64,000 bases of DNA from Candidatus Omnitrophota bacterium (GTDB taxonomy: Bacteria > Omnitrophota > Gorgyraeia > JAFGGP01), in assembly GCA_016930485.1 (NCBI GenBank), contig JAFGGP010000013.1:217157-281156 (forward strand). Direction: 5' to 3'. How positions within the stretch are numbered: the first letter of the stretch is position 1; each line of letters opens with the position of its first letter. The notes under the pieces are model-generated. The model was not told the DNA's origin. It worked only from the letters and a program-made list of their open reading frames with translations, and ran no database searches. The position numbers were made by a program, and so were the translations under genes. Positions 5,828 through 50,618 of the stretch are shown here, piece by piece.

Positions 5828-5851
5828 CGGGTCCTCCTTGCTTTGCCACAT

Positions 5852-5879: not shown

Positions 5880-5948
5880 GCAAAATTTCTCTTGCAAAAG
5901 AGAACGTCTCAAGCAACCTGCCTGCCTTGCCTCGCCGGCAGGAGGCCC

Positions 5949-5965
5949 ACAGGTTCGATTCCTGC
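5949..5965 (+). repeat. inverted copy of the tRNA-Arg T-arm (tRNA-derived fragment)
   Basis: acaggttcgattcctgc matches the T-arm of the tRNA-Arg gene (6040-6056, opposite strand) at 16 of 17 positions. No matching acceptor, D or anticodon arms are nearby. Confidence 0.6.
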
Positions 5966-6028
5966 CACTACAGAATAATTAGCAATTACATAAGGCAAAA
6001 TACTACATCAAGACTATCGCTCCAGAAA

Positions 6029-6105
6029 TGGTGCCCCAAGCAGGAATCGAACCTGCGACACCAGGTTTAGGAAACCTGTGCTCTATCCTACTGAGCTATT
6101 GGGGC
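6029..6105 (-). tRNA. tRNA-Arg (anticodon CCT)
   Basis: Full cloverleaf by hand: acceptor GCCCCAA/TTGGGGC, D arm GCTC/GAGC, anticodon arm CAGGT-TTCCTAA-ACCTG, T arm GCAGG-TTCGATT-CCTGC, with CCA encoded. 77 nt. Confidence 0.95.
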
Positions 6106-6107
6106 AG

Positions 6108-32513: not shown

Positions 32514-33860
32514 TTAGCTATTTTTTACTATCCCTCCAAAGACCTCTTGACCAGAGACCCTGTTAACAATAACCTCTTTAATGCCTCCCACATCGTCTCG
32601 ACATGCGTTGCTAACAAGGACCCGTATATACGTCTCGGTATACCCGGAAAAAAGCTGTGTTTTTGCATCCTGTCTTTCCTCGATAAGCACCCCTGCCCTC
32701 TTCCCGAGAAAATCCTCTGCATACAAACGGGCGTACTCTTGGGCCTTTTCTTTTAGGAACCCTGCCCGCTTTTTAACCGCCTGGGCCGATATTCGGTCTG
32801 GTAGATCGGCCGCCCGCGTTCCTTCTTTTGGACTAAAGGGAAAGATATGCATCCGCATCGGCTTCACGTGCTCAAGCAGTTTGACTGTATTGAAAAATTC
32901 ATTTTCTCCCTCGCCGGGAAAACCTACCATAATATCCGTAGAAATCGCGACCTTGGGAATTTTCCTTCGCAACACATCAACTAACGAAAGGTAATAGGCT
33001 GCGCTATATGGACGACGCATCAGCGAAAGTATAGTATCATCCCCGCTCTGAAGAGGAATATGCAGGTGAGGACAAACAATCTTACTTGTCTCTATCGCCT
33101 CAATTAGCTCCCCCGTTACCTGTTCCGGTTCTATCGAACTCAAGCGAATCCGCCCTATTCCCCGAATTCGGGCAAGCGATTTTACCACATCGACAAGCGT
33201 CACCTTGTCCTTAAGATCACGGCCATAGAGCCCCACGCAGATGCCGGTAAGGACAATTTCTTTTATGCCGTGCGCCACCAATCTTTCTGCCTCGGGGACA
33301 ATCTCGTCAAATGGTCTGCTACGCGAAACTCCCCGTACAAAAGGAATCTTGCAATATGAGCAGAACTTACTGCACCCGTCCTGTATCTTGATGAACCCCC
33401 TCGTACGGCCGGCAAATTCACTCACCTGTAATGGGATATATGCGCTCTCCCCTGACGGACTTTTCGGTTGTGTCGCAGTACCGTCTCTATGGTGCGCCCC
33501 GATAACAGACAGGATGCTGCCCTTTAAACAGTTACGCACAGGAACAATACGGTCGCGGCAGGCATACTCGGCAAAATGCTCCTCGATATAACAACCGGTA
33601 ACCACCAAGCGCAGGGTGGGATATCTTTTTAACACAGACTCTATAAATTTTCTGTTTTTTGCCGCGCTCGCCCTCGTAACTGTACACGTATTGACAAGCA
33701 GGAGATCTGCCTGAGAAAGTGCAGTAACAGGTAAATACCCCTTTTTTATCAACAGCTCCCGCATTGCCTGGAGTTCGTATTGATTGACCTTGCAGCCAAA
33801 ATGTTTAACGGCAAACTTCACAATCTCTTGTCCCGTTTCTTTTGATGCATGCTCTATCAT
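32514..33860 (-). CDS. mtaB: radical SAM methylthiotransferase, MtaB-like
   Basis: UPF0004 N-domain FGCKVNQYE, radical SAM CSKFCSYC and a C-terminal TRAM-like region. 448 aa. Confidence 0.8.
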   Translation of the reverse strand: MIEHASKETGQEIVKFAVKHFGCKVNQYELQAMRELLIKKGYLPVTALSQADLLLVNTCTVTRASAAKNRKFIESVLKRYPTLRLVVTGCYIEEHFAEYACRDRIVPVRNCLKGSILSVIGAHHRDGTATQPKSPSGESAYIPLQVSEFAGRTRGFIKIQDGCSKFCSYCKIPFVRGVSRSRPFDEIVPEAERLVAHGIKEIVLTGICVGLYGRDLKDKVTLVDVVKSLARIRGIGRIRLSSIEPEQVTGELIEAIETSKIVCPHLHIPLQSGDDTILSLMRRPYSAAYYLSLVDVLRRKIPKVAISTDIMVGFPGEGENEFFNTVKLLEHVKPMRMHIFPFSPKEGTRAADLPDRISAQAVKKRAGFLKEKAQEYARLYAEDFLGKRAGVLIEERQDAKTQLFSGYTETYIRVLVSNACRDDVGGIKEVIVNRVSGQEVFGGIVKNS

Positions 33861-33869
33861 ACCCTGTCC

Positions 33870-34628
33870 TCATTCAAGTTCGTAACGCAGCATAGCCATG
33901 ATAGCCATGGCCGCTGTCTCACTGCGCAGTATCATACTCCCAAGGCTAACCGGAATGCATCCATTCTGACGGGCGCGGTCAATTTCCCAGTCCTCGAACC
34001 CGCCTTCCGGTCCTACCAGAATGAGTATGTTCTTTCCTTTCCATCCCCGCACAACAGATTTCAAAGGACGTGCGCCCACTTTGAGACACGGTATAAGCGC
34101 CAAATCATACTGATCGCTGCTTTGTGCTATTTCGGTAAATGTGGCCGGCATCATGAGCGTGGGAATGAAAGAGCGACCAGACTGCCGCGAGGCCTCCTGA
34201 ATAATAGTATGCCACCTCGCAAGTTTTCCCCCGTGCACCCCGTCCTTCTCCTGTGTAACAGACCGTTGGGAAAACATCGGAAAAAAGAAGTCAACCCCGA
34301 TCTCGGTGCACTTCTGTAGCGCAAAATCCATCTTCCTCCCCTTGAGAATAGACTGGCAAACAGTCATCGTCACTCTCCCTTTTTCCGGAGGCAGGCTTTT
34401 GACCTCAAGCACCTTGCAGACAATGTGTCCTTCTCGCTCGGCAACCGACACAATCTCTGCAAGCGCCTCTTTTCCATGCCCGTCAAAAAGAGTGACTCTA
34501 TCATGGCAACGCAACCGTAACACATCCAGACAGTAGTGAAAAAGCCTCCTGTCAGTAATGGCCACTTCAACCGCGCTGAGGGAAAAATCGGCGCAGCAGA
34601 TCCTGTGTTTTGTCTTTTTCCTACTCAT
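33870..34628 (-). CDS. rsmE: 16S rRNA (uracil1498-N3)-methyltransferase RsmE
   Basis: PUA-like N-terminus plus a SPOUT C-terminus (ILILVGPEGGFEDWEI...SLGSMILRSETAA). Confidence 0.85.
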   Translation of the reverse strand: MSRKKTKHRICCADFSLSAVEVAITDRRLFHYCLDVLRLRCHDRVTLFDGHGKEALAEIVSVAEREGHIVCKVLEVKSLPPEKGRVTMTVCQSILKGRKMDFALQKCTEIGVDFFFPMFSQRSVTQEKDGVHGGKLARWHTIIQEASRQSGRSFIPTLMMPATFTEIAQSSDQYDLALIPCLKVGARPLKSVVRGWKGKNILILVGPEGGFEDWEIDRARQNGCIPVSLGSMILRSETAAMAIMAMLRYELE

Positions 34629-36633
34629 CGTTTTCTTTGCCTCCTCCGCCGCGAAAACTCAAGGCCGCCAATTCATCGCGCGCCTGGGCGAAATGACCGT
34701 CCAACCGGAGGGTCTTGAGAAGCTCGTCCCTCGCATCATTATACCGCCCTTCTATCAGGTAACAGCGTGCCAGATTGTAGTGACTGGCAGGATTTGCCGG
34801 ATCGCGACCTATTGCCTGCTGAAAGTATGCGCCGGCTACGGCATAATCTCCTTGCAAGACCCACAATGTCCCCAATTCATGATAAATGAGTGCCAGACCC
34901 GGTGCTATCTTCTGTGCCTCCTCGTAGAAAAAAATGGCGTTGTCATACTGTTTGATAATGGTGAAAAATCGCCCGAGGCTTAAGTAGCCAATCGGGAATG
35001 CCCTCTTGCGCATCCCAAAATACTTCACGGTAATAGCCGATGTATCTAGCAACGAAAGGTCTCTATGCGCACCTTCCGTTGCCTGGCGCGTTGCGGTTGG
35101 CGTCGGTTTTTCAAATATGCAGGCGGTATCATCAAGATACACAAGATTCCATCCCTCCCGGTACAGATATCTGAGCGGAATAAGAGAATCCTCCAGGCCG
35201 TGATGCAGGAGAACCGTATCGATCTGATAACTGCTGAGCAACCTCCCATATGCCTCATCATCGCTGCACGCCTCGATATATTCCGGAAAAATGTCGGTCT
35301 CGTATAGTTCGGTCCTCCCGTCGATAAACGGCCTGAAAGAGGGGTAGCCCCGCCAAAGGATATAGCCTCCGAGTGAAAGATTATTAAATAAAACGCGCTC
35401 TTTCTTCTCTCCCAACAGAAAGGTAAGCGCTCCTTCCGGATACGTTACAGGGCTGAGGCCCAATCCCAATTTATTGTGGGAAAAAATATCCGTGAGATAC
35501 CCATTGCCTACTATCCAGCCCGTGCCGGCTACAAGAATACAGAGGGACATTCCTATGCATATGGCGCTCCCTATTCTCATACTGCGTCTTGCACATACCT
35601 CTCTATTCTGTCGAAAATAACCTTCAAGGTTGTGCCCCGTCACCATAACAGCGACGAGAGAAAAAAGGGCGATATGCCGCATCATGCTTACCGAAAGCCA
35701 AAAGACAAACAAGAAAAAGAAAAGTAGATCCAGACGCATCCGTCTTATATCGGCTATAAAACTTGCCGCGGCGCCAAGCGCCAGAAAATGCAAAAGCTCC
35801 CGCTTGTATACATAATGCGCATGAACCAGGTGTCCCTCATAAAAGGGTTTGAGCTCAGAGATATGCCGCCCCACCATGCCAGTATGCCGTGCCGCATGGT
35901 ATATCCGCCCAAGCGGATAGAGCAACTGGTGATAGCCATACGGGCCAATGCACCCCGCCGCGACTGTCGCAAGCCACACCATAACAAGTTGCCCTAACCA
36001 CGCCCCCTCCGGTACATCATCCCCTGCAGACACCGACAATATCACTACACGAAGTCTGCGAAACAGCTGATCAAACAGGAAAAGCGTGACCATCCCAATA
36101 CCAATCAGGGAATAACCGTGAAGATTCGTCCATACCGCCTGCAGTACCGGAAAAAAATAAACGAGCCTGCCTTTTTTCTTCGGTGACTCCATCATAAGCA
36201 ATAGATACAGTGCAACGAAAAAGAGCGTGAACACCTCCGGTCTTATCAATAACCTCTTTTCAGAGAGAATAATCGAACACAATGCGAATAAAACCGTCAG
36301 GAATCGCGCGGTGGACGTCCTTGCTATATAAAAAATCATGCCGTAACTTGCGGTAATAAGGAGCACCTTGAACAGAATAAGCCCCGCCACCCCGCCCAAG
36401 GAATAGATGACGGCAAATAATACCTGGGAAAGCCACTCGTGATTTATCCATTCCCTTCCCGAGGCAGTCTCGCTGTATATATCACGATGCTGGATAGCAC
36501 CTGATCGCAGAATATCGCTCCCTGCCCTCAGATGAAACCAGATATCAAAATCAAGCATCGTATGTGCAGCGATCAGCGCAACAAAAAAGAGCGTTGCCAC
36601 AACGAGCGCTCTTTCACCGTATTGAGACATCAT
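34621..36633 (-). CDS. polytopic membrane protein with C-terminal TPR repeats (GT-C-like glycosyltransferase suspected)
   Basis: More than 10 hydrophobic helices. DFDIWFHLRAG follows the first helix, then a soluble linker (FIDGRTELY) and TPR repeats. Paralogous to the upstream gene. Start taken at MMSQYG (the track ORF starts at 36702). Confidence 0.75.
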   Translation of the reverse strand: MMSQYGERALVVATLFFVALIAAHTMLDFDIWFHLRAGSDILRSGAIQHRDIYSETASGREWINHEWLSQVLFAVIYSLGGVAGLILFKVLLITASYGMIFYIARTSTARFLTVLFALCSIILSEKRLLIRPEVFTLFFVALYLLLMMESPKKKGRLVYFFPVLQAVWTNLHGYSLIGIGMVTLFLFDQLFRRLRVVILSVSAGDDVPEGAWLGQLVMVWLATVAAGCIGPYGYHQLLYPLGRIYHAARHTGMVGRHISELKPFYEGHLVHAHYVYKRELLHFLALGAAASFIADIRRMRLDLLFFFLFVFWLSVSMMRHIALFSLVAVMVTGHNLEGYFRQNREVCARRSMRIGSAICIGMSLCILVAGTGWIVGNGYLTDIFSHNKLGLGLSPVTYPEGALTFLLGEKKERVLFNNLSLGGYILWRGYPSFRPFIDGRTELYETDIFPEYIEACSDDEAYGRLLSSYQIDTVLLHHGLEDSLIPLRYLYREGWNLVYLDDTACIFEKPTPTATRQATEGAHRDLSLLDTSAITVKYFGMRKRAFPIGYLSLGRFFTIIKQYDNAIFFYEEAQKIAPGLALIYHELGTLWVLQGDYAVAGAYFQQAIGRDPANPASHYNLARCYLIEGRYNDARDELLKTLRLDGHFAQARDELAALSFRGGGGKENDE

Positions 36634-39070
36634 CGTCCCTTTCTGCACCCCCCTCTCGCAAGAGTCCCTCGGCCTTGTCTCTAAACTCCCTAAGGAGGGC
36701 ATTATCCGGTTTTATCGCTAACGCCTTATCCCATACAGCAAGCGCCTCCCGGTATCTCCCCTGCTCGGCATAAAGGGTTCCCAGATTGCGTAATGCGAGG
36801 AAGGACCGCTCGTCCCTTTGTAACACCCGTTCAAACTGCTCCTGGGCCTGCACATATTCCTTAAGCTCGGCAAGGATAACCCCCCTGTGCGTTCCCAGCA
36901 GTGCCGAATCCGGAAAAGAGTTCAATCCTTTTTCATAGACAGCCAGGGCCTCCCGCAGGCGTCCGTTTTCATAATACAGTTTTCCCGCCCTGTGAAATAT
37001 CACCTCTGACTGAGGCGCACACTCAACACCCTGGAGGTAGACACGCAAGGCCTCATCCGGCATCTTTTCGGCTGCTAATGCGTCTCCCAGCTGGATAAAA
37101 AAACCAGGGGGTCGCTCACCGTAATAGGCCTCTAGCAATACCGCTTCTTTCTCTTTAAAAAACTGCATCCGCCGGCGGATAATCCTGTCTGTCTGCTTAA
37201 GCCACCGATCGCCCGGTCTGAGCGCCAGGGCCGTCTGCAGGGCCCCCAAGGCCGCATCATACTCGAGCAAAGAGGCATAGAGAACCGCCATGTGGTGGTA
37301 AACCGATACAAGTCGCGGCTCTAGCTCTAAGGCCTTTTTATAACAGTAAAGGGCATTTTCATGAAAACCCAATGCGGTAAAAAAATCGGCAAGGCGGAGG
37401 TACGGCCACGGACAGGGCCGTTTCTTCAGACCGCTCGAGTATGTTGCAATCTCTGCCGGCGTATACTCAGGAAAAAACCGTGCAGGATCTATTTTGTACT
37501 TTTGTATAAGCGCTTCATGGCCGCGATCCTTCTTTACAAAAATGGCCGCTGTATCATCAACATAAATCAGTTCCCAGTGGACATCCTGAAAAAGCGTAAT
37601 CAAAGCAGACCACGAAACTCCAAAGTGATGATGAATAAAGGCGAGATCGAAATCGTATTTCTCTTGCCATCTGTGCCACACATCGCGATTGAGATGTATA
37701 TACTCATCCAAGAATTCCGGTGAATAATACTCCGTCCGACCGTCTATAAACACCTGCCGCGGATACAGCTGCCCTATCAGATAAGAACCAAATGCTGATG
37801 TGTTAAATAGCCTGCCCTGCCGACAGTTTTCCTTAAAGAAGGCCGCGGCCCGCAGGGGGTACATGATGTGCGAGACGCCAAATCCAAAACGGGCCGGGTG
37901 GTTGGGAAAATAATACCCATCAGCGAGGATGTGCGCACCAAACACAAAAGCAGGCAACGTCAAACACAGTGAAATAAGGGGGTCTTTCACCCAACGAACA
38001 GACCTCAGATACCAGCGGTTGCGGCTGCTTTCGCTAAACTGGGTCGCATCTTCCCAATTCTGGATATATGCCCACAGGGCAACGATAGCAAAAAGGTCTA
38101 TATGTCGCCTCATCGAAAACGCAAGATATAAACTCGCGCTGAAGATCAAAAAAAGGGAGAGGCGAAACCTGCGTATGGTTGCCAAAAAACTGACGGCGGT
38201 TAGAATAAAAAGACAGTGAAAATAGAAAAAGGTTACTGGTCTTTTGCTGAGCATACCCTCCACCAGCGGAGAAAGCTCGGTAATATACCGAATTGAGTCC
38301 TTTGCATGGAAATACGTATTGGCAATGACCCGAAACGGATAGAGCGCCCCTTCGAGAAAATAGGGATTGAGCAAACAGCAACCGGCAAGCACAAGACCCA
38401 GCATGCCCAACCGTCTGAGATCGCACAACTCCAGACAAGGTGTTGTACCACGTTTGTTGTGTATACACATCCACCGTGATAGCGACTCCCCGAGCACAAA
38501 ACAACTCACCATGACAGGACCGATAAGAAAGTACCCGTGCATATTTACCCACAGGATCTGGATGACCGGCAGTATATATAACGCGTGCGATTTTTTTCGA
38601 TAGCAAAACCGGAGCAGGCTGTACAGAAAAATACTGGTAAACAATAAAGAGAAGATGTGGGGCCGTACCAGAAACCGCGGCTCTGAGGCAACAAAGGCGG
38701 CACTCAGCATGGCGCACGTCACAAACAGATGCTCTTTTCGGGCAAAACCCACTATTAGAAAAAATGCCCCGCATAGCGTGATATACTTCAGCATAATAAG
38801 GGCAAAAGCGCCGCCGAGGCGATAGAGAGTGAAAAAGAGTATCTGCGACAGCCATTCCATATTTATCCAACGTACGCCATTGAGGGTATAGACATAAGGG
38901 TCGTTATAAATGAAAGCCCTGTTCTTAAGAAGCAGTTCCCCTGTTTTCAGGTGAAGCCAGATATCTAAATCGTAGATATCGTGGGCCGCAAAAATAAAAA
39001 GTAGAACTGCCAAGAGACTAAGCACACAAAACGATACGTATGAAACCGGCTTCTCTTTCATGTGTATCAC
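36614..39070 (-). CDS. polytopic membrane protein with C-terminal TPR repeats (paralog of 34621-36633)
   Basis: Same architecture as its paralog: DLDIWLHLKTG after helix 1, WINMEWLSQILF, FIDGRTEYY and a longer TPR tail. 818 aa. Confidence 0.8.
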   Translation of the reverse strand: MIHMKEKPVSYVSFCVLSLLAVLLFIFAAHDIYDLDIWLHLKTGELLLKNRAFIYNDPYVYTLNGVRWINMEWLSQILFFTLYRLGGAFALIMLKYITLCGAFFLIVGFARKEHLFVTCAMLSAAFVASEPRFLVRPHIFSLLFTSIFLYSLLRFCYRKKSHALYILPVIQILWVNMHGYFLIGPVMVSCFVLGESLSRWMCIHNKRGTTPCLELCDLRRLGMLGLVLAGCCLLNPYFLEGALYPFRVIANTYFHAKDSIRYITELSPLVEGMLSKRPVTFFYFHCLFILTAVSFLATIRRFRLSLFLIFSASLYLAFSMRRHIDLFAIVALWAYIQNWEDATQFSESSRNRWYLRSVRWVKDPLISLCLTLPAFVFGAHILADGYYFPNHPARFGFGVSHIMYPLRAAAFFKENCRQGRLFNTSAFGSYLIGQLYPRQVFIDGRTEYYSPEFLDEYIHLNRDVWHRWQEKYDFDLAFIHHHFGVSWSALITLFQDVHWELIYVDDTAAIFVKKDRGHEALIQKYKIDPARFFPEYTPAEIATYSSGLKKRPCPWPYLRLADFFTALGFHENALYCYKKALELEPRLVSVYHHMAVLYASLLEYDAALGALQTALALRPGDRWLKQTDRIIRRRMQFFKEKEAVLLEAYYGERPPGFFIQLGDALAAEKMPDEALRVYLQGVECAPQSEVIFHRAGKLYYENGRLREALAVYEKGLNSFPDSALLGTHRGVILAELKEYVQAQEQFERVLQRDERSFLALRNLGTLYAEQGRYREALAVWDKALAIKPDNALLREFRDKAEGLLREGGAERDDDVSIR

Positions 39071-39087: not shown

Positions 39088-40587
39088 TTAGCGGATCTCG
39101 TCCTCTGAAAAGGACTCTGTGGTGTAGATATATAACTCGGCACCCCTTGTGAGGGCGTCACGGGAAAGGCCCGCCTTATCGACCAAACAGTGCTCGATAA
39201 ACTCTTCTTTAGACCACCCTGTCTCGGCCGCAACCTCGGGAAGAAACGTCCCTGAACGAAATCCCTGTCTAATATAAATACCGTGTGTTCCCAATATCAC
39301 ATCGTCAGGTGAGGCAACCCGTTTAAGCGGCGAAAGCACGGAAATATGTATATGGATAGCATCAATTTCTTCCGGCCTGACCGGACGAAAACGCGTATCC
39401 CGTACCGCGGCGGCAATGGCCATTTCCCGCACCACCTCATAGAGGGGGCGATCGGCGATAAACTGGCCGATACAGCCCCGGAGCACCCCGTTTTCCTTGA
39501 GTGTCACAAACGCACCGGAGTGCACCGTCAGCGCCGGATCCGCGATGCTGATCTCAAGCCTCTTACCCGTTGTTACATACTCTCTGATGGAGTCGCGGGC
39601 TATCTCTAGCAGCCTCTGTTTTTGGGCCCTGGTAAAAACGCCCTCCTCCTCATGTCCCCCAGTTATCCTGCCGTCGGGCCGCTTTACAAATGCAATAGCG
39701 GCATAACCGACAACCCGCGTCTTGTCCCCCTGCGTATCGCCCGAATTGGCATGCTGCAGTATGATGCCCTCGGTGATGCCAATCTTCTCTGCCATCAACA
39801 TCAGTGTAATCATCCCGGAAAGTCCGCACATCTCGTTTTTTCTCTGGAGACACCTTGTGTATAACTCATTCCACTGCATGCCCCTTATATACTCGAGCGT
39901 GCTCTGATCCATCTTATTCGCCGTATCATAGGGATAATAATGCGACAGATCTGTACTCACCAGAAAGAGCAGTTTCTTCTCCCTTGATAAGGCAAGCAAG
40001 GCATCGCTTAAGGCAGTACACGTCTGGAACGACTGATCGCCTATGACAATCGGGACAATCGGGGTATCGGGCATCACTACCTGGAGAAACGGCAGCTGCA
40101 CCTCAAGCGAGTGCTCTTTTTTATGCGCCAGCGGCTCAAAGTGGAAGCGACTGCTCATAGACTCGAGTTTCCTGCTCAGCCCCCTGTCAACGCGCACGAT
40201 ACCCAGCGGCGTCTGGTAGTCGCCGATGCTATAAATCGACGCACCCGGAAAATCATAGTGATGGGACGGGGCCATAATGACTACCGCGTCGAAGTCCATA
40301 TTCCTGATCAGGGCGTATCCCTGCGCCGCTATGCCACCCGAATAGATATACCCAGCATGGGGAACGGCAAGACCAAAAAGCTCACCATCCACAGGGGTGT
40401 CGTGCGCCTGGGATAAAAAACCCTCTACGGTATCCCGCAGGATTTTTGGATCGGCGGGATAAAAAGTTCCGCTTACCACAGGCCTTCGTATAGTCCGCGT
40501 CTCATCCGATGCCCCAGACGTACACTGAACAGTAAAAAAACAAAGCGCCAAAATAGCGCCTAATAATAAAAGAAAGTGTCTTTTCAT
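39088..40587 (-). CDS. Memo-like (AmmeMemoRadiSam B) / AMMECR1 (A) fusion protein with N-terminal signal peptide
   Basis: N-terminal MKRHFLLLLGAILALCFFTVQCTSGA. Memo motifs SGTFYPADP, VPHAGYIYSG, EHSLEVQLPFL and STDLSHY, then the AMMECR1 motif LRGCIGQF...GTFLPEV. AGAGG lies 5 nt upstream of the ATG. Confidence 0.9.
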   Translation of the reverse strand: MKRHFLLLLGAILALCFFTVQCTSGASDETRTIRRPVVSGTFYPADPKILRDTVEGFLSQAHDTPVDGELFGLAVPHAGYIYSGGIAAQGYALIRNMDFDAVVIMAPSHHYDFPGASIYSIGDYQTPLGIVRVDRGLSRKLESMSSRFHFEPLAHKKEHSLEVQLPFLQVVMPDTPIVPIVIGDQSFQTCTALSDALLALSREKKLLFLVSTDLSHYYPYDTANKMDQSTLEYIRGMQWNELYTRCLQRKNEMCGLSGMITLMLMAEKIGITEGIILQHANSGDTQGDKTRVVGYAAIAFVKRPDGRITGGHEEEGVFTRAQKQRLLEIARDSIREYVTTGKRLEISIADPALTVHSGAFVTLKENGVLRGCIGQFIADRPLYEVVREMAIAAAVRDTRFRPVRPEEIDAIHIHISVLSPLKRVASPDDVILGTHGIYIRQGFRSGTFLPEVAAETGWSKEEFIEHCLVDKAGLSRDALTRGAELYIYTTESFSEDEIR

Positions 40588-40598: not shown

Positions 40599-40769
40599 TT
40601 AACCGGCGAGGTTATCGTAATAACGCGCCTCTTTGCGGTCCTCATTGCGAACAGGCGTGCTGTCCCGCCCCAGTAAGTCGCGCACGCGCGCCAGCGCTAA
40701 AGACCACACAGTGACGTAGAAAGCACCGGCAGCCTTGATGAGAAACTCACGCCGTGTCATCTTGTCCAT
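40599..40769 (-). CDS. 56-aa protein consisting mainly of a twin-arginine (Tat) signal
   Basis: MDKMTRREFLIKAAGAFYVTVWSLALA matches the Tat consensus (S/T)RRxFLK plus a hydrophobic region and AxA. AGGAGG lies 6 nt upstream of this ATG. Sits between the rSAM and Memo genes. Confidence 0.65.
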   Translation of the reverse strand: MDKMTRREFLIKAAGAFYVTVWSLALARVRDLLGRDSTPVRNEDRKEARYYDNLAG

Positions 40770-40894
40770 AGCATACCTCCTGAATAAGCGGATCATTTAC
40801 CCAACGCAGGAAACACAACGCAGAGGTCACAGGCCATCTGCGCAAAAAATTCTGCCTCTTTTTGGCGGTGCATCCCGTGCATCTCGGTCTCATC

Positions 40895-41872
40895 TCAATC
40901 ATACCACAAGCCATGGATTTTGGTATTACAAAAGCGGCATGCATCGCCCTTCAGATTATACTGAGTCACCCGATATCCGGACCTTCCCACGATAACCCTG
41001 CCGCAACTCTCGCAGTACGTCTGCTGGGCCTGTACATCGTCAATGTTTCCGATGTAGACGTAGTGCAGTCCTTCATCCATGGCAATCTCCCGGGCCGACT
41101 GCAGCGTATGAAGCGGCGTCGGGGGAAGATTCTGCAACTGATACTGCGGGTAAAAACGGGAAAAATGGAGTGGAGTCTGACGGCCCATATGCTGCGCAAT
41201 CCACCGACACATCTGCCGTATCATCGTTGGTTCGTCATTGAGCGTCGGCACGATCAAATTAGTAATCTCGACCAAAATCCCGCTGTCCTTCATTGCCACA
41301 AGGGTATCCAGCACCGGGCCCAGCCTGCCTCCGGTAACCGACTCATAGAACTCTTCGGAGAACCCCTTAAGGTCTACATTCGCACCGTCGATATAGGGGG
41401 CAATTTCTTTAAGCGGTTCGGTATTTATGAAACCGCAGGTAACCAGTATGTTCGCAAGCCCCTTCTGGTGCGCCAGTACCGCGGTGTCGTAGGTATACTC
41501 ATAAAAAATAATCGGATCACTGTAGGTATAGGCTATCGAACGGCACCGTTCACTCATGGCCTGTGCCACCACCTCCTCAGGCGCCAGATCGACATTGCGT
41601 GTCTCCTCGGGGTAGGCCTGGGAAATCTGCCAATTCTGACAATACTTGCAACTCAGGCAGCACCCTGCCGTTGCTATGGAAAAACTGCCGCTGCCGGGGT
41701 ACATATGAAACATCGGTTTTTTCTCTATCGGGTCCACATGGACGGCGCATGGCTTTCCATATACAAGGGTATACAGCTTCCCTTCCTGATTGACGCGAAC
41801 CCTGCACCGGCCGCGTTCATAGTCGCGCATCCGGCATGCATGGGGACAGAGTGTGCACTGGACCAGAGACAT
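40895..41872 (-). CDS. AmmeMemoRadiSam-system radical SAM enzyme
   Basis: N-terminal CTLCPHACRM...GRCRVR, the radical SAM cluster CCLSCKYCQNWQIS and a C-terminal Cys4 ribbon (CESCG...CRFCN). Start taken at MSLVQC (the track ORF starts at 41962). Confidence 0.88.
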   Translation of the reverse strand: MSLVQCTLCPHACRMRDYERGRCRVRVNQEGKLYTLVYGKPCAVHVDPIEKKPMFHMYPGSGSFSIATAGCCLSCKYCQNWQISQAYPEETRNVDLAPEEVVAQAMSERCRSIAYTYSDPIIFYEYTYDTAVLAHQKGLANILVTCGFINTEPLKEIAPYIDGANVDLKGFSEEFYESVTGGRLGPVLDTLVAMKDSGILVEITNLIVPTLNDEPTMIRQMCRWIAQHMGRQTPLHFSRFYPQYQLQNLPPTPLHTLQSAREIAMDEGLHYVYIGNIDDVQAQQTYCESCGRVIVGRSGYRVTQYNLKGDACRFCNTKIHGLWYD

Positions 41873-41880: not shown

Positions 41881-42111
41881 CTACCTCTCCAGAGTCTGAT
41901 ACCACCGGGCCTCGCGCGGAATCAACCCCTTCTGTAAGGCATCCTGAAACCTGCGTTCCCACTGTGCCCTGTCATAGAAATCCGGGGACGTCTGTACCGA
42001 AAAAAAAGCACCGGTAATATCATACAGCAGATGGACCGCAAGAAGGCCTACTATCATACATGTATATATCACCGCGATGTAGCCGATCTTGGGCGAAGTA
42101 CTATATCGCAT
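41881..42111 (-). CDS. 76-aa single-pass membrane protein, function unknown
   Basis: MRYSTSPKIGYIAVIYTCMIVGLLAVHLLYDI plus a charged tail. It fills the gap between the polyferredoxin gene stop (42101) and the rSAM start (41872). The longer 162-aa track ORF overlaps the upstream gene out of frame. Confidence 0.45.
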   Translation of the reverse strand: MRYSTSPKIGYIAVIYTCMIVGLLAVHLLYDITGAFFSVQTSPDFYDRAQWERRFQDALQKGLIPREARWYQTLER

Positions 42112-43495
42112 GCGTACGGCCCCGTTCCTTCCGCCGGCTGATATGTATGCCGGCCTTCCGGCATACACGCCGGCACTCATTACACCTGATGCACTCGCTA
42201 TTCTTAATGCCCTCACCGTCGATGCACGCAGTCTCGCACGCCAGACCGCATGCGCCGCACCTCGAGCAGTTCGTCTGTTCCATCCGCAAAGAAAAAACCG
42301 AAAAACGCGAAAGGAGGGCCAGCGCCGCGCCCGTGGGACAAAAATAACGGCACCAGAATCGTATGACAAATACCCCTATGGCCAATACACTACTAACAAG
42401 GACCCAGTCAAGAATGCCTCCGCGAAGGCGAAAGCCCGTCACAAACGGCTCATACCGGGACAGATCAACCGTGGGGATAACAAATGAGGCAGAAAGGATA
42501 ACAGCAAGCAAGGAATATTTTATATACTTGAGCCGTCTATCGATTCGTCGGGGAATGATCAGCTTTGTATTGGGGACTGCGGCATACACAATCTCCTGGA
42601 GTGCGCCAAATGGACACAGATACCCACAGTATACCCTGCCATAGAACCCGGTAAGGATAATAATAAAGCCGGTATAAAAGAACCAAAAATACGTATACGC
42701 AAAAACAGGCAACTCCAGTGTCAAAAGGGTCCGTAGGTGACTAAGCGACAGGAACTCACCTGCAAGAAAACCGAAATAGACAACACTGATACATAAGATA
42801 ACATAGCGCAGTTTTCTCTGTAACACATAGTCGTACAGTGCTAAAAAAATGAGCAATATCAATACAGCCAGCTTCGTAAGCGGATGCAACAGGTACGCAA
42901 AAAAAGAAAGGGGTTTCTTGACTGTTTCCGGGAAGGTTTCTCCCGTTTTCCCTAAGAGCTCACGATTGACCAGTGCGATGCTTTTTTTGATCGATCGGGC
43001 AACACAACCCGCCGATACCGTTGCTCCGGTAATGCCGTCGATATCCCCGCCGAGTATCAGTGGGTCGTCCGGGGTCTTTCCGGTAAACTGCCCCAGGAAC
43101 CAGTCGGATTCGATGGCCATCGCATATGAGGCAGTTTCACGGTGCCTGAGAATCCGCGCGCCCGTGACGGAACCGGCGCGGTTTATTCCCAGTGCCACCT
43201 GAATGGGCCCTTCATAGCCCCGTTCCCCGGGAACAAGCTGGGTCGTTATAACGGCGTAGCCAAGAATCTCCTCGGAGGCAAGGCGTCGGTAGAGGCCAAA
43301 GACGGTGAAATGGGGAATTTTTTTTTCGCTGTACTCAACCCGCGTAACGGTACAGTCGCCGGGAAAAAGCCCTACGGCCAGGTCCCGGTCGATAAGAAGC
43401 GGCGGACCGCTTGACTGTCTGACTGTTACGTGGCAATAACATAACGTTACTATGAAAAGGGCCCACAGAAAAAGGGAGGCCGCTTTTTTGGACAT
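42101..43495 (-). CDS. FMN-binding domain / NapH-NosR-like polyferredoxin membrane protein
   Basis: N-terminal anchor. FMN_bind domain with the flavinylation motif DIDGITGATVS. TM block with CGYLCPFGALQE and CRYFCPTGAA. C-terminal 2x[4Fe-4S] CSRCGACGLAC...CIRCNECRRVC. Confidence 0.85.
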   Translation of the reverse strand: MSKKAASLFLWALFIVTLCYCHVTVRQSSGPPLLIDRDLAVGLFPGDCTVTRVEYSEKKIPHFTVFGLYRRLASEEILGYAVITTQLVPGERGYEGPIQVALGINRAGSVTGARILRHRETASYAMAIESDWFLGQFTGKTPDDPLILGGDIDGITGATVSAGCVARSIKKSIALVNRELLGKTGETFPETVKKPLSFFAYLLHPLTKLAVLILLIFLALYDYVLQRKLRYVILCISVVYFGFLAGEFLSLSHLRTLLTLELPVFAYTYFWFFYTGFIIILTGFYGRVYCGYLCPFGALQEIVYAAVPNTKLIIPRRIDRRLKYIKYSLLAVILSASFVIPTVDLSRYEPFVTGFRLRGGILDWVLVSSVLAIGVFVIRFWCRYFCPTGAALALLSRFSVFSLRMEQTNCSRCGACGLACETACIDGEGIKNSECIRCNECRRVCRKAGIHISRRKERGRTHAI

Positions 43496-43531
43496 GCACC
43501 GCCCTCGCATCACTATAGTTCATGGTGTGCT

Positions 43532-44074
43532 CTACGTCTCTGAAAAGACATCCGCCGAAAATACAAAGAGCTCGCTCTCGTCGTCTCTCCAGGCATCTTC
43601 CGGCAGGCCGGCCTTGATGCAGATATGCCGCAAAAATGTATCGCGATCCCATCCATATCGGGCTGCAACCTGGGGTAGGAGAAGGCCGGAAAAGAAACCC
43701 TTTCGGATATAAAGCCCATGAAGGCCTATGTGGATCTCGCTGGGCGCCTGAATTCTCTGAAATTCACTGAGTATCGAGAGCTCAATGGTTATGGAATTAA
43801 CCTCTTCGCTTTGAAGCGGGTGAAAACGGGGGTCATGGAAGGCCGCCTGCAGGGCCATTTCTCGGATGACGTCTATAAGCACCCGGTCAGCGGCAATGTG
43901 ACCAATGCAGCCGCGCAACTCACCTTCTTTTTCGAGTGTGACAAAGGCCCCGCACTTTTCAAGAAAAACAGGGTCAACGGCAACCGGTCGTACCGGTTTT
44001 TTTCCTTTGAGGGAATCACCGATTGCCTGCCTCGCAACCGTCAATAATGTTCTTTTCTGTATTTCGTTAAACAT
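43532..44074 (-). CDS. AMMECR1 domain protein (AmmeMemoRadiSam system protein A), stand-alone
   Basis: LRGCIGHI, FHDPRF and SGLLLPQV. 180 aa with no signal sequence. Confidence 0.9.
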   Translation of the reverse strand: MFNEIQKRTLLTVARQAIGDSLKGKKPVRPVAVDPVFLEKCGAFVTLEKEGELRGCIGHIAADRVLIDVIREMALQAAFHDPRFHPLQSEEVNSITIELSILSEFQRIQAPSEIHIGLHGLYIRKGFFSGLLLPQVAARYGWDRDTFLRHICIKAGLPEDAWRDDESELFVFSADVFSET

Positions 44075-44669: not shown

Positions 44670-45239
44670 TTATGTCTGCCCGGCCTTGCACCGAAGACAC
44701 ACACCGGAAATAAGTGTCAGATATTCGTATTTGAATGCATCGTCTATCTTGACCCCTGTCACTTTACGGCAGCCTGTAATCGTAATATTAACCATATGTG
44801 CATCCGGGACCACGTTAAACTCGAGAAAACTGATATCCGAACTCAAAACGGTCGTCTGTGCCCCTCCCCCGTCGGGTGTGCGGATGCACTCAAGATCGCT
44901 GCCGCTTAATTGATACTCATACTTTGTGTCATCGCTAAAAACGCTGGGGGTGTTTAATTCGTCCACCCATATTTCAAGGTGCTCGGCACTGATGCGGTTA
45001 ATTGCGGTTCCTTTTTTCAAGTTACTCTGCATGTGTTCCATAATAAAGGCGACATCGCTGGCGATTCGGGATTGCGCGCTCGCCGACTTGAAAAATCGTC
45101 TGCTTGAGACATCAATCATCATGACCGCGATAAACACCAGGCTCGAGAGCACCACCGCCAGCATCAGCTCAACAATATTGACACCGCTACAGCTCCTGAA
45201 GACGTCGCTCCTCAGAATTATTCGTTTGGCTCGTTCCAT
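44670..45239 (-). CDS. minor (pseudo)pilin with prepilin-type N-terminus
   Basis: ...RSCSG/VNIVELMLAVVLSSLVFIAVMMI: Gly at -1, Glu at +5 and a hydrophobic helix. Last gene of the pilin block. Confidence 0.65.
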   Translation of the reverse strand: MERAKRIILRSDVFRSCSGVNIVELMLAVVLSSLVFIAVMMIDVSSRRFFKSASAQSRIASDVAFIMEHMQSNLKKGTAINRISAEHLEIWVDELNTPSVFSDDTKYEYQLSGSDLECIRTPDGGGAQTTVLSSDISFLEFNVVPDAHMVNITITGCRKVTGVKIDDAFKYEYLTLISGVCLRCKAGQT

Positions 45240-45631
45240 GTCACTTTTGTCGTTACCTTTTTATAATCGCCGATATCCTCGATGCGCAGGTAGGAAGTCC
45301 CGCTAAAGATATAACCAAAGCTGTTTCCAGGGTCATTTGGCACGCTCGGAAACTCACCGGAATACCCGGTGGCGGTGGCAGGATCAATAAAACCGTCCGC
45401 GTCTGCGTCAGGCAGTGCCAGCGTATCTTGCAGGACTGTTTCAAAATGGCCTCGTGATCTCACGGACTCCATAAGCTGGCGCGAAAAATTAAGTGCCGTC
45501 ATACGCCTGCTCTGCCGGTCGACCGCTCGCTCGGCAAGGGAAAAGACCTGAAACATCCCTGCCATAATCACCGTCAGAAGAAGCATCGAGGTAATTACTT
45601 CGATAAACGTAAGTCCTTGCTGGTCCTTCAT
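45218..45631 (-). CDS. minor (pseudo)pilin with prepilin-type N-terminus
   Basis: MKDQQG/LTFIEVITSMLLLTVIMAGMFQVF, a short leader with Gly-1 and Glu+5. Confidence 0.75.
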   Translation of the reverse strand: MKDQQGLTFIEVITSMLLLTVIMAGMFQVFSLAERAVDRQSRRMTALNFSRQLMESVRSRGHFETVLQDTLALPDADADGFIDPATATGYSGEFPSVPNDPGNSFGYIFSGTSYLRIEDIGDYKKVTTKVTWNEPNE

Positions 45632-45633
45632 CG

Positions 45634-46407
45634 CTAATTCACCTTAACGAGAATGAGCACTGCCCCCTCTCCCTCTGAAAGCTCGCTCAGTGCCTTGCCC
45701 AGCGCCATCCCGTACTGCAGCTTCGCTGGATCGGCCTTCATTGCATAGCCTGCTTTTGAGCTGGTCACTAAGATATCGCCGCGTTTGATTGGGCCGCCCT
45801 CGGTAGTAGCATTGCACATCACTCTGCCTGCAAGGGCAAGCGGTTTGCCCGATTCAGGGTCCCCTATTTTAAAAACAGGGTTTTGCGATATTATCCCCGC
45901 AACCGTCGCGTCATAAGGTGCATAACTTTTAATGACAGCATCATCATTATCAGGATCTATCACAACAACATCTCCCCCCTCGCAACCATCGGCTCGAATA
46001 TACTCTGCAATATCAGGATGAATCTGACCTCCATTAAGCGATATAGTGCTAGTCCCTGTGGCAGAGCCGACAATCAAATTGCCAAGAACTGTAGCGTTAT
46101 TGCCGACACTCAAATCCTGACTTACGCTCACCCCGCCGCCCGTATCCATCAGGTCGATCGTATTTGCCTGCAGCACGACGCTATTGGCCGTAGTATTCAC
46201 CTGCAGCATAGTGCCGCCCCCTGCGGTAAAATCATCCTCAACGATCAGGTCCCCTCCGTCACCCGCAACCTCCACCACCTCGACCATCTTAAACTTACCG
46301 TACGGGGCCGGATAATAGGTGGTAAGAGTAATATCCTCGGCGGATAGCGTGTGATATGAGAGCACAATCAGAAAAAAAATCAGTAGGCCGAACCGCCATT
46401 TTTTCAT
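45634..46407 (-). CDS. secreted protein embedded in the pilin block, function unknown
   Basis: Signal peptide MKKWRFGLLIFFLIVLSYHTLSA/ED, then TTYYPAPYG. A Gly/Thr/Asn/Val-rich middle region suggests a beta-solenoid, and there is a C-terminal module (GDVVVIDP...YDATVAGIIS...ALAGRVMC...GDILVTSSKAGYAMKA). No pilin N-terminus. Confidence 0.7.
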   Translation of the reverse strand: MKKWRFGLLIFFLIVLSYHTLSAEDITLTTYYPAPYGKFKMVEVVEVAGDGGDLIVEDDFTAGGGTMLQVNTTANSVVLQANTIDLMDTGGGVSVSQDLSVGNNATVLGNLIVGSATGTSTISLNGGQIHPDIAEYIRADGCEGGDVVVIDPDNDDAVIKSYAPYDATVAGIISQNPVFKIGDPESGKPLALAGRVMCNATTEGGPIKRGDILVTSSKAGYAMKADPAKLQYGMALGKALSELSEGEGAVLILVKVN

Positions 46408-46488
46408 AATCCCCTCCTCTGGTATCGCTGTTCATGACAATGCGATTGCTGTGCGGTTTCTGAATATCCCACGAAAGGAAAATACCTG

Positions 46489-46932
46489 CTATGGATTGAA
46501 GGGCCCTTGCACATCTCCCGACTTTTGAATCCTATACCTGTCACCCTCGCGCGCCCCTCTCAGACGTGTTGCCTCGGCAATAAAATCCTCCAGGAGCGTG
46601 TCCGGCGGCGGTGGGGGGGCAAGAGAATAGCTAAAATCCCTCTGGGATTCAACGCGGGCATTCGGGTTTTCGATATTAAGGAGATTGAGGTCGTCGCTAA
46701 AAACCCTGTATTCAGAAAAATACACCTCTTGACCGGCCCGGATCAGGCGAAGCAACGCCCTCGCCTCCTTGGTCCTGGCGTTCTCCGCCACATCAATATA
46801 CTGGGGCATAACGAGTATAAAGAGAACAGAGATAATTAATAGAACGACGAGCACCTCTGCGAGTGAAAAGCCACTTGTAGCATGCTCCATTGAGCCAGCT
46901 CTTTTTGGCCTGTCGCACTGATTTGGGTGCAC
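46489..46932 (-). CDS. type IV pilin-like protein
   Basis: ...HATSG/FSLAEVLVVLLIISVLFILVMPQY. GTG start with AAGGAG 8 nt upstream. Confidence 0.8.
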   Translation of the reverse strand: MHPNQCDRPKRAGSMEHATSGFSLAEVLVVLLIISVLFILVMPQYIDVAENARTKEARALLRLIRAGQEVYFSEYRVFSDDLNLLNIENPNARVESQRDFSYSLAPPPPPDTLLEDFIAEATRLRGAREGDRYRIQKSGDVQGPFNP

Positions 46933-46961
46933 GTTATATCTCCTTAGAAAAATACATCAAT

Positions 46962-47025
46962 AAAAAAACCGTAGACAGTTTATCTCTGGCCGATTATGGC
47001 GCCTGTGAAAAACATACATCTACGG
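46962..47025 (-). terminator. possible attenuating terminator after the major pilin gene
   Basis: Minus strand CCGTAGA (47025-47019) pairs with TCTACGG (46975-46969), followed immediately by T7 (46968-46962). The 43-nt loop is large, so this is weakly supported. Confidence 0.3.
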
Positions 47026-47060
47026 CTTCTTTACGTAACTTCCGGTAGCGGTAGGGAGTA

Positions 47061-47486
47061 TTACCGGGTGACTGCAAACTGGTGTTCACCGCCGATCGCG
47101 CCGGTCTGATCCATGGTAATGGTCTGGCCGTGCCAGGGTCCCCCGTTTCGCGTAGCAATAGCAGTGAAACCAAGGTCGGTCGCACCGCATACCTCATAAG
47201 CGAAGTATCTGCCCGAAATGTCGACGTCCAATATAGCATTAATAGCGCTCATATCGGTCGCGTTCACATAACTTTCCCATTCAAGATAGTAGAGCTTTTC
47301 ACCGGTCAGAATGCTTCCAAGGTTGGTCTTCGCCTCACCTGTTTTTGCCTTCTCAATGGAGTTCGCGTATTGAGGCACCGCAATGCTTGCAAGAATGCCT
47401 AAAATAATCACAACGATGAGCACCTCGATGAGAGTAAAGCCCCTGTTCTTCACACCCCACCTCCTTTTCTGTTTGCCCGTTCGCAT
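47061..47486 (-). CDS. major type IV pilin / GspG-like pseudopilin
   Basis: ...VKNRG/FTLIEVLIVVIILGILASIAVPQY is a canonical prepilin cleavage/methylation site. It has its own strong promoter. Confidence 0.9.
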   Translation of the reverse strand: MRTGKQKRRWGVKNRGFTLIEVLIVVIILGILASIAVPQYANSIEKAKTGEAKTNLGSILTGEKLYYLEWESYVNATDMSAINAILDVDISGRYFAYEVCGATDLGFTAIATRNGGPWHGQTITMDQTGAIGGEHQFAVTR

Positions 47487-47524
47487 ACCTTGCCTTACCT
47501 ATTGTAGATACATCTGTTAAAGTA

Positions 47525-47553
47525 AGTATAGCCAACTATCCGAGCCCTGTCAA
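47525..47553 (-). promoter_or_regulatory. sigma-70-type promoter for the major pilin gene
   Basis: Minus strand TTGACA (47553-47548), 17 nt, TATACT (47530-47525), about 38 nt upstream of the ATG at 47486. Confidence 0.65.
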
Positions 47554-47664
47554 GGGAATTTCTCTCATCAGGCATGATCATTTCAATGCCCTTTTCTCCA
47601 AGCGCATCTACCCTCTCGGGAATAGAAAACCAGGCCTCTTTTTTTCGGTCCTCACGGTAAAAGA

Positions 47665-48885: not shown

Positions 48886-48899
48886 ATATTGCCCCTCTC

Positions 48900-50615: not shown

Positions 50616-50618
50616 TGC

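Follow-up and report, generated by a model that had tools for sequence, protein, structure and literature searches.

A Memo–AMMECR1 Fusion with a Predicted Sec Signal Peptide and Its Putative Extracytoplasmic AmmeMemoRadiSam Module in an Omnitrophota Bacterium

The Fusion Gene and Its Gene Row

We analyzed a stretch of 64,000 nucleotides (nt) from the genome of a Candidatus Omnitrophota bacterium (GenBank assembly GCA_016930485.1, contig JAFGGP010000013.1, positions 217,157 to 281,156 of the forward strand); this whole stretch is referred to as the window, and coordinates without a locus name are positions within it. A gene encoding a Memo–AMMECR1 fusion of 499 amino acids (aa), i.e., proteins B and A of the AmmeMemoRadiSam system in one chain, was found on its minus strand (39088..40587). 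The Pfam Memo domain (PF01875; 208.5 bits, cut-off 27) covers residues 36–298 of the product (39694..40482), the match beginning at profile position 2, and the Pfam AMMECR1 domain (PF01871) covers residues 327–493 (39109..39609), with the invariant LRGCIG motif at residues 369–374. Because the Memo match begins at residue 36, the first 35 residues lie outside any domain. The fusion also matched TIGR04336 (AmmeMemoSam_B) with 275.4 bits (cut-off 26) over profile positions 1–270 of 270 and TIGR04335 (AmmeMemoSam_A) with 169.4 bits (cut-off 99). Its Memo half matched the structure of MEMO1 (E=1.5e-16) and its AMMECR1 half that of MM0484 (E=5e-29). Residues H77, H109, D213, H216, and C254, invariant in the alignment of homologs, are all kept; they would be the equivalents of the MEMO1 metal-site residues. 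An NCBI protein 100% identical to the fusion, from a metagenome-assembled genome (MAG) of Candidatus Omnitrophica, is annotated as ‘AmmeMemoRadiSam system protein B’.

The fusion belongs to a minus-strand row of genes running from 44074 to 39088. It opens with a stand-alone AMMECR1 (180 aa, 43532..44074), followed by a NosR/NapH-like membrane redox protein (470 aa, 42101..43513), a 76-aa open reading frame (ORF) with one transmembrane (TM) helix (41881..42111), the AmmeMemoRadiSam radical S-adenosylmethionine (radical-SAM) enzyme (40895..41872), a 56-aa ORF with a signal of the twin-arginine translocation (Tat) type (40599..40769), and the fusion itself; two paralogous polytopic tetratricopeptide repeat (TPR) proteins come after it on the same strand. 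Neighboring genes are separated by 6–20 nt or overlap; only the 56-aa ORF is set farther apart, ~125 nt after the radical-SAM gene. The stand-alone AMMECR1 scored 184 bits with AmmeMemoSam_A, its domain starting at residue 12, and the radical-SAM enzyme scored 384 bits with TIGR04337 (cut-off 220); all three AmmeMemoRadiSam components are thus present above curated cut-offs in one gene row.

The Signal at the N-Terminus of the Fusion

An earlier note on this DNA, made from the sequence alone, had proposed that the fusion starts at an ATG with AGAGG 5 nt upstream. The start codon was indeed located at 40587, and AGAGG, resembling a Shine–Dalgarno (SD) sequence, at 40597–40593 of the minus strand (a strand that the note had left out), with a 5-nt spacer, tcctt; the stop codon of the preceding gene (40599–40601) is 11 nt away from the ATG. 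The next in-frame methionine is residue 96, within the Memo domain, as the note had stated. Its claim that a GTG with a poorly spaced SD is the only alternative start held in part: GAAGG stands just 3 nt ahead of the GTG, which is codon 37 (40479), but a TTG, with no SD, is also present in frame at codon 13 (40551).

The hydrophobic leader that the note had seen ahead of the Memo domain has all the parts of a Sec signal. The product opens with MKRHFLLLLGAILALCFFTVQCTSGASDETRTIRRPVVSGTFYPADP, and its N-terminus can be written as MKRHFLLLLGAILALCFFTVQCTSGA|SDETRTIRRPVVSGTFYPADP. Codons 1–26 (40510..40587) read as a Sec-type signal peptide of an architecture common to the homologs: a basic n-region MKRH, a 16-residue hydrophobic h-region FLLLLGAILALCFFTV, and a c-region QCTSGA with small residues at positions −3 and −1 (S-G-A|S), as expected for signal peptidase I. 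The maximum hydropathy of the leader over 12 consecutive residues was 2.98. Signal peptidase I probably cleaves at SGA|SD, i.e., after Ala26. K2 and R3 precede the helix, so that by the positive-inside rule the catalytic domains are predicted to lie outside the cell, and an anchor facing the cytoplasm is unlikely.

Two other types of signal were considered for the fusion and rejected. No lipobox of the form [LVI][ASTVI][GAS]C was found in the leader, as neither LALC nor TVQC fits it, and the protein was therefore not regarded as a lipoprotein. A Tat signal was dismissed since the h-region is very hydrophobic and the n-region contains KRH and no RR; consistent RR was also not evident in the n-regions of the 120 best homologs.

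Recurrence of the Leader among Memo Relatives

Fused Memo–AMMECR1 proteins numbered more than 7,900. In the 120 top-ranking metagenomic homologs (41–49% identity), a Sec-type or lipoprotein leader was present in nearly every case, right before the G-x-F-Y-P start of the Memo domain. These leaders are unrelated in sequence and share one architecture, i.e., K/R residues, a hydrophobic core, and an AxA-like or lipobox site. The exceptions were few and partly due to wrong start calls, proteins P0003 and P0042 being P0007 minus its leader.

We also scanned GTDB with one genome per species, which yielded 80 loci related to the fusion, 79 of them included in the leader count; they represented more than ten phyla, including Omnitrophota, Bacteroidota (Prevotella among them), Acidobacteriota, Planctomycetota, Desulfobacterota, Nitrospirota, Latescibacterota, Zixibacteria, and KSB1. 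A stretch of 10 residues ahead of the Memo start with a mean Kyte–Doolittle hydropathy of 2.2 or more was scored as a leader, and the calls were then inspected. By the hydropathy rule, a leader was present in 60 of the 79 species-level loci, about three quarters; inspection adds L042, whose lipobox leader is truncated where the contig ends, and L065, with an ambiguous start, while the call at L062 is probably a false positive on a protein that is probably leaderless, and L053 is ambiguous. Truly leaderless fused proteins numbered 11, and none of the six unfused Memo genes had a leader. The check proposed in the earlier note, an alignment to see whether leaders recur in other Memo and AMMECR1 proteins, thus gave a positive answer in both sets. 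Judged from these sequences, the leader is not a product of chance.

Many homologs end the leader in a lipobox (LIAC|S, SVGGC|A, FSAGC|T, and ..NC|NSQ in Bacteroidota; by locus, PLGC|K in L008, VGGC in L087, and SAGC in L089). As a lipobox only makes sense on exported proteins, these homologs are expected to be exported. The nearest neighbors of leaderless fused forms were often leader-bearing, and the leaderless forms were scattered and did not constitute a single clade; a single gain of the leader was therefore rejected, and localization seems to have been switched repeatedly. The start of the L089 fusion (5240–6610) was called incorrectly, and an in-frame upstream ATG restores a leader ending in FSAGC|T. 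Since automatic calls sometimes begin after the leader (L089, P0003, P0042), signal peptides are under-reported in databases.

A leaderless AMMECR1 3.5 kb upstream of the fusion had also been noticed earlier, with the suggestion that one copy of the domain is exported and the other is cytoplasmic. The stand-alone AMMECR1 described above is leaderless, no in-frame start being possible upstream, and is presumed to be the cytoplasmic copy; this, together with the recurrent leaders of the fusions, supports the suggestion at the sequence level.

A Putatively Split Radical-SAM Enzyme and Two Small ORFs

The radical-SAM gene lies ~300 nt upstream of the fusion in the same orientation, and a radical-SAM gene adjoins the fusion in 40 of the 80 related loci. 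The enzyme of the window is leaderless, opens with MSLVQ|CTLCPHAC, and falls within a clade of leaderless proteins ~323–331 aa long. It aligns to TIGR04337 from profile position 12 on, the first ~10 N-terminal positions of the family being absent. Its 120 closest relatives (55–62% identity) were nearly all 323–339 aa long and started 3–18 residues before the first cysteine; only three were longer (364–387 aa) and had N-terminal extensions. In fused and canonical members, the segment before the first cysteine was, for example, EALFYQKLENKLVQ|C, EAKFYQKLQNKKIK|C, or ARYYEKLPYRKIK|C. No solved structure was found for this radical-SAM family; the nearest was pyruvate formate-lyase (PFL) activase (PFL-AE; E=7e-5).

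The missing segment was found in the two small ORFs flanking the radical-SAM gene. The 56-aa ORF (NCBI: hypothetical protein JW844_02680), with GGAGG 6 nt upstream (40776–40780), has the sequence MDKMTRREFLIKAAGAFYVTVWSLALA|RVRDLLGRDSTPVRNEDRKEARYYDNLAG. Its signal, MDKMTRREFLIKAAG...SLALA|R, shows the features of a Tat signal: the motif M-T-R-R-E-F-L-I-K, a moderate h-region, and an AxA site (AAGAFYVTVWSLALA|R). The signal is followed by the tail ...KEARYYDNLAG, so that the ORF consists of a Tat signal plus the missing segment and ends where the radical-SAM enzyme begins (MSLVQ|C). EARYYDNLAG joined to MSLVQ|C recreates the N-terminus of the fused enzymes (EALFYQKLENKLVQ|C), one residue longer. 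Pfam gave only a weak match of the 56-aa ORF to the Tat-signal profile UCR_Fe-S_N (E=0.023), NCBIfam gave nothing, and a search of 5.8 billion proteins returned the ORF itself alone. The 76-aa ORF (NCBI: hypothetical protein JW844_02690) contains the TM helix IGYIAVIYTCMIVGLLAVHLLY with basic residues on its N-terminal side, and its tail ...PREARWYQTLER ends in EARWYQTLER. Its stop codon is 6 nt before the ATG of the radical-SAM gene, and its start overlaps the stop of the NosR-like gene by 11 nt.

This split layout was compared in the contigs of nine leaderless radical-SAM relatives (L081–L089), in L008, and in the window. A Tat mini-ORF of 44–61 aa came directly after the leaderless radical-SAM gene in 11/11 loci, and the RR motif was kept in all of them. 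Common to the members are the motif RR-x-F-L, a hydrophobic stretch of short length, and the C-terminus (K/R)EA.(F/Y)(Y/W)....LAG. They were encoded at L008 4813–4947, L081 5993–6163, L082 6016–6192, L083 6055–6207, L084 6509–6739, L085 6005–6190, L086 ~5972–6130, L087 4972–5127, L088 5019–5186, and L089 4926–5120; that of L086 was missed by the gene finder. A six-frame pattern scan of 89 loci and the window found 10 such Tat ORFs, all directly after a leaderless radical-SAM gene and none elsewhere. We failed to find a Pfam or NCBIfam family for the Tat mini-ORFs, and the copy of the window was without word-sharing relatives. The fusions at the split loci were all leader-bearing.

An upstream TM mini-ORF with the same tail (66–89 aa, a single TM helix) preceded the radical-SAM gene in seven loci, i.e., in the window and at L081 4735–5004, L082 4789–5004, L084 4762–5004, L085 4786–5004, L087 3783–3983, and L088 3754–3981, often with a 4-nt overlap with the radical-SAM start. 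At L083 and L086, it is the NosR-like protein that ends in this tail, with one more TM helix between the ferredoxin domain and the tail. Positive charges precede the helix of the small TM ORFs, which are predicted to have the N-terminus inside and the C-terminus outside. When either native tail of the window was prepended to the radical-SAM enzyme, the TIGR04337 alignment extended from profile position 12 to 2; a scrambled tail gave no extension. With a 20-column hidden Markov model (HMM) of the canonical radical-SAM N-terminal segment, four Tat mini-ORFs were the top 4 of 3855 segments.

Predicted Export Signals on Radical-SAM Partners in Relatives

The N-termini of the 40 radical-SAM genes beside fusions in the GTDB loci were compared; 39 were usable. 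Most of the 40 had an N-terminal extension ahead of the first cysteine motif, C-x-L-C-P-x-x-C. A Tat-like signal was identified in 21/39, with RR in nine (e.g., SRREFLETAARLG, ERRYFLKCALVSG, and DRRTFIKISS) and KR in 12, all from Bacteroidota (e.g., NKREFLK and SKRDFIKK); every RR and KR motif was followed by a mildly hydrophobic stretch. The same pattern occurred in the first 100 residues of 18 of the 728 other ORFs of these loci. Seven of the 39 genes had a Sec- or TM-like leader (six Omnitrophota/Planctomycetota loci and L048), and 11 had none. All 28 leader-bearing radical-SAM genes adjoined a leader-bearing fusion (Fisher p=0.018), and at L051, L071, and L075, where the Memo proteins are leaderless, the radical-SAM gene was leaderless in all three. 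The predicted route mostly fits the cofactor: the Fe-S enzyme would go by Tat, a pathway for folded proteins, and the cofactor-light Memo–AMMECR1 protein by the Sec or lipoprotein route.

The NosR-like Protein and Other Recurrent Neighbors

The NosR-like protein of the window is anchored at its N-terminus; its FMN_bind domain contains DGITGATVS, a motif of the flavinylation type, its TM helices contain two CX3CP motifs, and a ferredoxin domain with 2x CxxCxxCxxxC makes up the C-terminus. It did not reach an equivalog-level match (111.5 bits with NosR, cut-off 1000; 73.6 bits with the NapH subfamily, cut-off 213) and has in common with these families only the set of domains (FMN_bind, Fer4_5, two ferredoxin motifs). 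A NosR-like gene with FMN_bind and Fer4_5 was located directly upstream in 7/10 split loci, with the window counted and L008 excluded. In NosR, the domain binding flavin mononucleotide (FMN) is periplasmic, five TM helices come next, and the ferredoxin domain is cytoplasmic. The tail of the L083 and L086 proteins is predicted to be periplasmic, because the ferredoxin domain would be cytoplasmic as in NosR and is followed by an extra TM helix.

A polytopic protein of ~720–750 aa with a central spermidine-synthase-like domain (PF01564) was encoded in 24/60 leader-bearing loci vs. 0/19 other loci (p=4e-4). It was seen at L004, L008, L009, L012, L014, L017, L021, L022, and 16 more loci, and also at L081 6142–8373, L083 6183–8336, L085, and L086 6118–8292. 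A DsbD_2/CcdA-like gene was found directly downstream of the fusion in L001 (11399–12058), L011, L015, and L023 (Omnitrophota/Planctomycetota); this thiol-disulfide transporter may provide an alternative outward route for reducing power. Acidobacteriota and other loci repeatedly encoded a NapH-type polyferredoxin, a lipoprotein of the DUF6599 type, and a DUF362 protein that has a Tat signal. The DsbD_2-like, NapH-type, DUF6599, and DUF362 genes were present only beside leader-bearing fusions, and their products are membrane or extracytoplasmic redox components. Homologs of the spermidine-synthase-like protein, DsbD_2, DUF362, and DUF6599 were not found in the 64-kb window.

Regarding the genes after the fusion, the first TPR protein (818 aa, 36614–39070, minus strand) follows it directly, and its paralog (693 aa, 34621–36702, minus strand) comes next. 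Both have a polytopic N-terminal half of ~540 residues and TPR repeats at the C-terminus; no Pfam family was found for the N-terminal halves, even at E<=10, and the paralogs share D-I-W-x-H-L...W-I-N-x-E-W-L-S-Q near the first loop. RsmE-like and MtaB/MiaB-like genes (32514–34628, minus strand) come after the cluster in the window. Several Omnitrophota/Planctomycetota loci (L001, L007, L010, L011, L015, L023) have the same pair after the fusion, which makes the two TPR membrane genes of the window look as if they had been inserted into a conserved gene order. Upstream of the cluster (44670–52253, minus strand), a set resembling type IV pilus or type II secretion genes was recognized from translations only; it includes several pseudopilin-like genes with hydrophobic helices at the N-terminus, a GspF-like protein, a GspE-like ATPase, and a secretin-like protein.

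A Proposed Extracytoplasmic AmmeMemoRadiSam Module

Directly or by comparison, we observed the signal architecture and how it recurs, the motifs of the Tat type, and the linkage of the genes. We infer from the sequences where the signal is cleaved, that export and hitchhiking take place, which way the electrons travel, and to what class the substrate belongs. The fusion is very probably exported by Sec and probably cleaved after Ala26. In the mechanism that we regard as likely for the locus, this exported Memo–AMMECR1 protein belongs to an extracytoplasmic AmmeMemoRadiSam module, in which the radical-SAM enzyme hitchhikes via Tat and is reduced across the membrane. That the whole module works outside the cytoplasm is, taken as a claim of its own, favored by a narrow margin. 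The earlier note had read an export signal from the fusion alone; this was too modest, since the Tat mini-ORF, the TM mini-ORF, and the NosR-like protein also support export.

The proposed sequence of events is as follows. The fusion would be translated from the ATG at 40587, the 26-residue signal would be cut, and an enzyme of ~473 residues would be freed in the periplasm or at the outer side of the inner membrane, while the stand-alone AMMECR1 would remain in the cytoplasm. The radical-SAM partner would be made lacking both a signal and its first N-terminal segment (EA-x-aromatic-aromatic), and that segment would be supplied in trans by the 56-aa Tat or the 76-aa anchored mini-protein. Folded and loaded with its cluster, the enzyme would cross the membrane via Tat as a ‘hitchhiker’, i.e., by hitchhiking through fragment complementation. 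The membrane-anchored tail, or the tail of the NosR-like protein, may hold it beside the periplasmic FMN domain. The NosR-like protein would pass electrons from cytoplasmic Fe-S clusters to periplasmic, covalently bound FMN and thereby reduce the exported enzymes. Cytoplasmic radical-SAM enzymes are reduced by flavodoxin, and the FMN domain would take over this part. The likeliest substrate is a component of the envelope or of a membrane and not a nucleic acid.

Several observations weigh against this mechanism. The tails improved the match to TIGR04337 by only +1.5 and +2.2 bits (0 for the scrambled control), and tail homology accordingly rests mainly on motif, register, and recurrence; the 20-column HMM gave E=0.9–6 only and missed the upstream TM ORFs. 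In an AlphaFold model of a chimera of tail and radical-SAM enzyme, based on a 51-sequence alignment, the predicted local distance difference test (pLDDT) score was 90.7 for the core and 35–53 for the tail; without an alignment, the pLDDT was 32. With such gains and scores, the idea of a segment acting in trans is founded on motif, position, and recurrence, not on structure. Two different mini-proteins with the same tail would also compete as its donors. Leader calls were made by the hydropathy rule and by reading, and a few of them are start-codon artefacts (L062, L053). The radical-SAM leaders of Omnitrophota/Planctomycetota (L001, L009, L011, L015, L023, L034) are Sec-like and not Tat. Finally, SAM is not known to be available in the periplasm; if the mechanism is true, either periplasmic SAM is needed or the radical-SAM enzyme is exported with SAM bound as a regenerated cofactor. 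The Sec-like radical-SAM leaders just listed, encoded immediately upstream of the respective fusions, are strongly hydrophobic and have an AxA-like site (e.g., MKKSLLLLILLLSVLFPAIGA|DQ), which is puzzling for an Fe-S enzyme.

The radical-SAM enzyme might instead stay in the cytoplasm and act before export, modifying the Memo–AMMECR1 precursor or making a small molecule or lipid that is processed outside; the NosR-like protein would then reduce it from the cytoplasmic ferredoxin domain. Anaerobic sulfatase-maturing enzymes, radical-SAM enzymes whose sulfatase targets are exported by Sec, offer a precedent. SAM and low-potential reductants are cytoplasmic, the enzyme of the window has no signal of its own, and the invariant cysteine of LRGCIG in AMMECR1 could, speculatively, be the target of modification. 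In Prevotella MAGs (L046, L047, L052, L068) and at some Bacteroidales loci, a lipoprotein-type fusion is paired with a leaderless radical-SAM enzyme with a complete N-terminus, which does not fit export of the entire system; the Prevotella fusions have ..MMNSC|NGQ, their radical-SAM enzymes are 287–317 aa long, and the Tat mini-ORF was not found at these four loci. Nevertheless, this explanation appears unlikely to us, because 28 of the 39 radical-SAM genes carry leaders of their own, 21 of them Tat-like, the Tat mini-ORF stands beside leaderless radical-SAM genes only (11/11 loci), and a periplasmic orientation is predicted for the TM-anchored tails.

The mini-ORFs could also be precursors of the type of ribosomally made peptides that are modified after translation (RiPPs), with the Tyr/Trp-rich C-terminal motif modified by the radical-SAM enzyme, Memo, and AMMECR1 and the peptide then exported. 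We consider this improbable: the motif that makes the small ORFs flanking the radical-SAM gene look like precursors is the enzyme's own N-terminus in fused and canonical members, inside the TIGR04337 profile, and the radical-SAM genes with mini-ORFs are exactly those without that segment. A Tat rather than a Sec signal on an unfolded 56-aa peptide is also hard to explain without a folded traveling partner. Precedents of another kind do speak for such precursors, as Memo-like domains fused to RiPP recognition elements were reported (PMC12710340) and radical-SAM enzymes related to the Memo–AMMECR1 ones occur in peptide-processing systems (PMC7159879). The least probable explanation is that the leader of the fusion is not used, translation beginning at the GTG of codon 37 with its GAAGG, or the helix serving as a cytoplasm-facing anchor, which would leave the protein in the cytoplasm, as is the case for canonical Memo and AMMECR1. 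The 11 fused and all the unfused homologs that are leaderless show that the enzyme does exist in a cytoplasmic form. However, the ATG has the better-spaced SD and lies close behind the upstream stop, 108 nt of non-coding DNA would have to encode a textbook signal peptide by chance, and leaders, many with a lipobox cysteine, are present in ~75% of homologs, while positive charges precede the helix.

Beyond this locus, we put forward tentatively that many bacteria have a complete radical-SAM system in the periplasm, its Fe-S enzyme being brought there by its own Tat signal or as a split enzyme, reduced through FMN, and acting together with a Sec-exported Memo–AMMECR1 protein on an envelope substrate. 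The conservation of Memo and AMMECR1 extends from archaea to humans, both have been linked to disease in humans, and they have no agreed biochemical function. Ideas so far have centered on intracellular substrates. With a large clade of fused proteins, spread over many phyla and predicted to be exported, attention shifts to the cell envelope as the place to look for the substrate; membrane electron conduits and the polytopic spermidine-synthase-like protein are the partners that recur. If the radical-SAM enzyme is truly exported, this would call into question the working assumption that the cytoplasm is the only site of radical-SAM chemistry and would represent a new kind of Tat hitchhiking.

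Comparison with Known Systems

In the literature naming the AmmeMemoRadiSam system or AMMECR1, we found no function or localization of the system, and a periplasmic, exported, or Tat-dependent radical-SAM enzyme was not mentioned in the literature searched. Burroughs et al. reportedly described the gene contexts of Memo–AMMECR1 in 2019 and linked them to the modification of nucleotide bases and isoprenoids. The component families are known, and what appears to be undescribed is the architecture for export, a radical-SAM enzyme in split form accompanied by a Tat mini-protein, and the coupling to a NosR-like protein.

The row of the window has the same three components as canonical AmmeMemoRadiSam (TIGR04335/TIGR04336/TIGR04337), the invariant residues of Memo, and the LRGCIG motif. 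In contrast to the canonical system, a Sec signal precedes a single chain made up of components B and A, the first ~10 positions of the radical-SAM profile are carried by two mini-ORFs and not by the enzyme, and a NosR-like conduit and a second, leaderless AMMECR1 are present. Human MEMO1 and AMMECR1 and the archaeal AMMECR1 proteins (PDB 3BCZ/7KQ8; 1VAJ, 1ZQ7, 1WSC) are homologous in sequence to the two domains of the fusion; MEMO1 and AMMECR1 are separate intracellular proteins without a signal, whereas the protein of the window is a single chain with a predicted export signal.

Co-export of Tat ‘hitchhikers’ is well known for the small and large subunits of hydrogenases and for related enzymes (PMC10924467). 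As in such pairs, the gene of an Fe-S protein lacking a signal adjoins here a partner with a twin-arginine signal. Unlike in hydrogenases, the carrier would be a mini-protein of 44–61 residues, and its only other conserved feature is a tail of ~10 residues resembling the missing N-terminal segment of the passenger.

The NosR-like protein follows the plan of the NosR/NapH/RnfG conduits, with an N-terminal anchor followed by FMN_bind with [S/T]GAT, CX3CP motifs, and, at the C-terminus, a ferredoxin domain of the 2x[4Fe-4S] type; its partner, unlike that of NosR and NapH, is the set of radical-SAM, Memo, and AMMECR1 proteins and not a reductase of N2O or nitrate. Anaerobic sulfatase-maturing enzymes are cytoplasmic radical-SAM enzymes acting on Sec-exported sulfatases. 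The system studied here resembles them in the linkage of a radical-SAM gene to the gene of a Sec-exported enzyme and differs in that its radical-SAM enzymes belong to a PFL-activase-like and not a SPASM-type subfamily and that most of the partners carry export signals.

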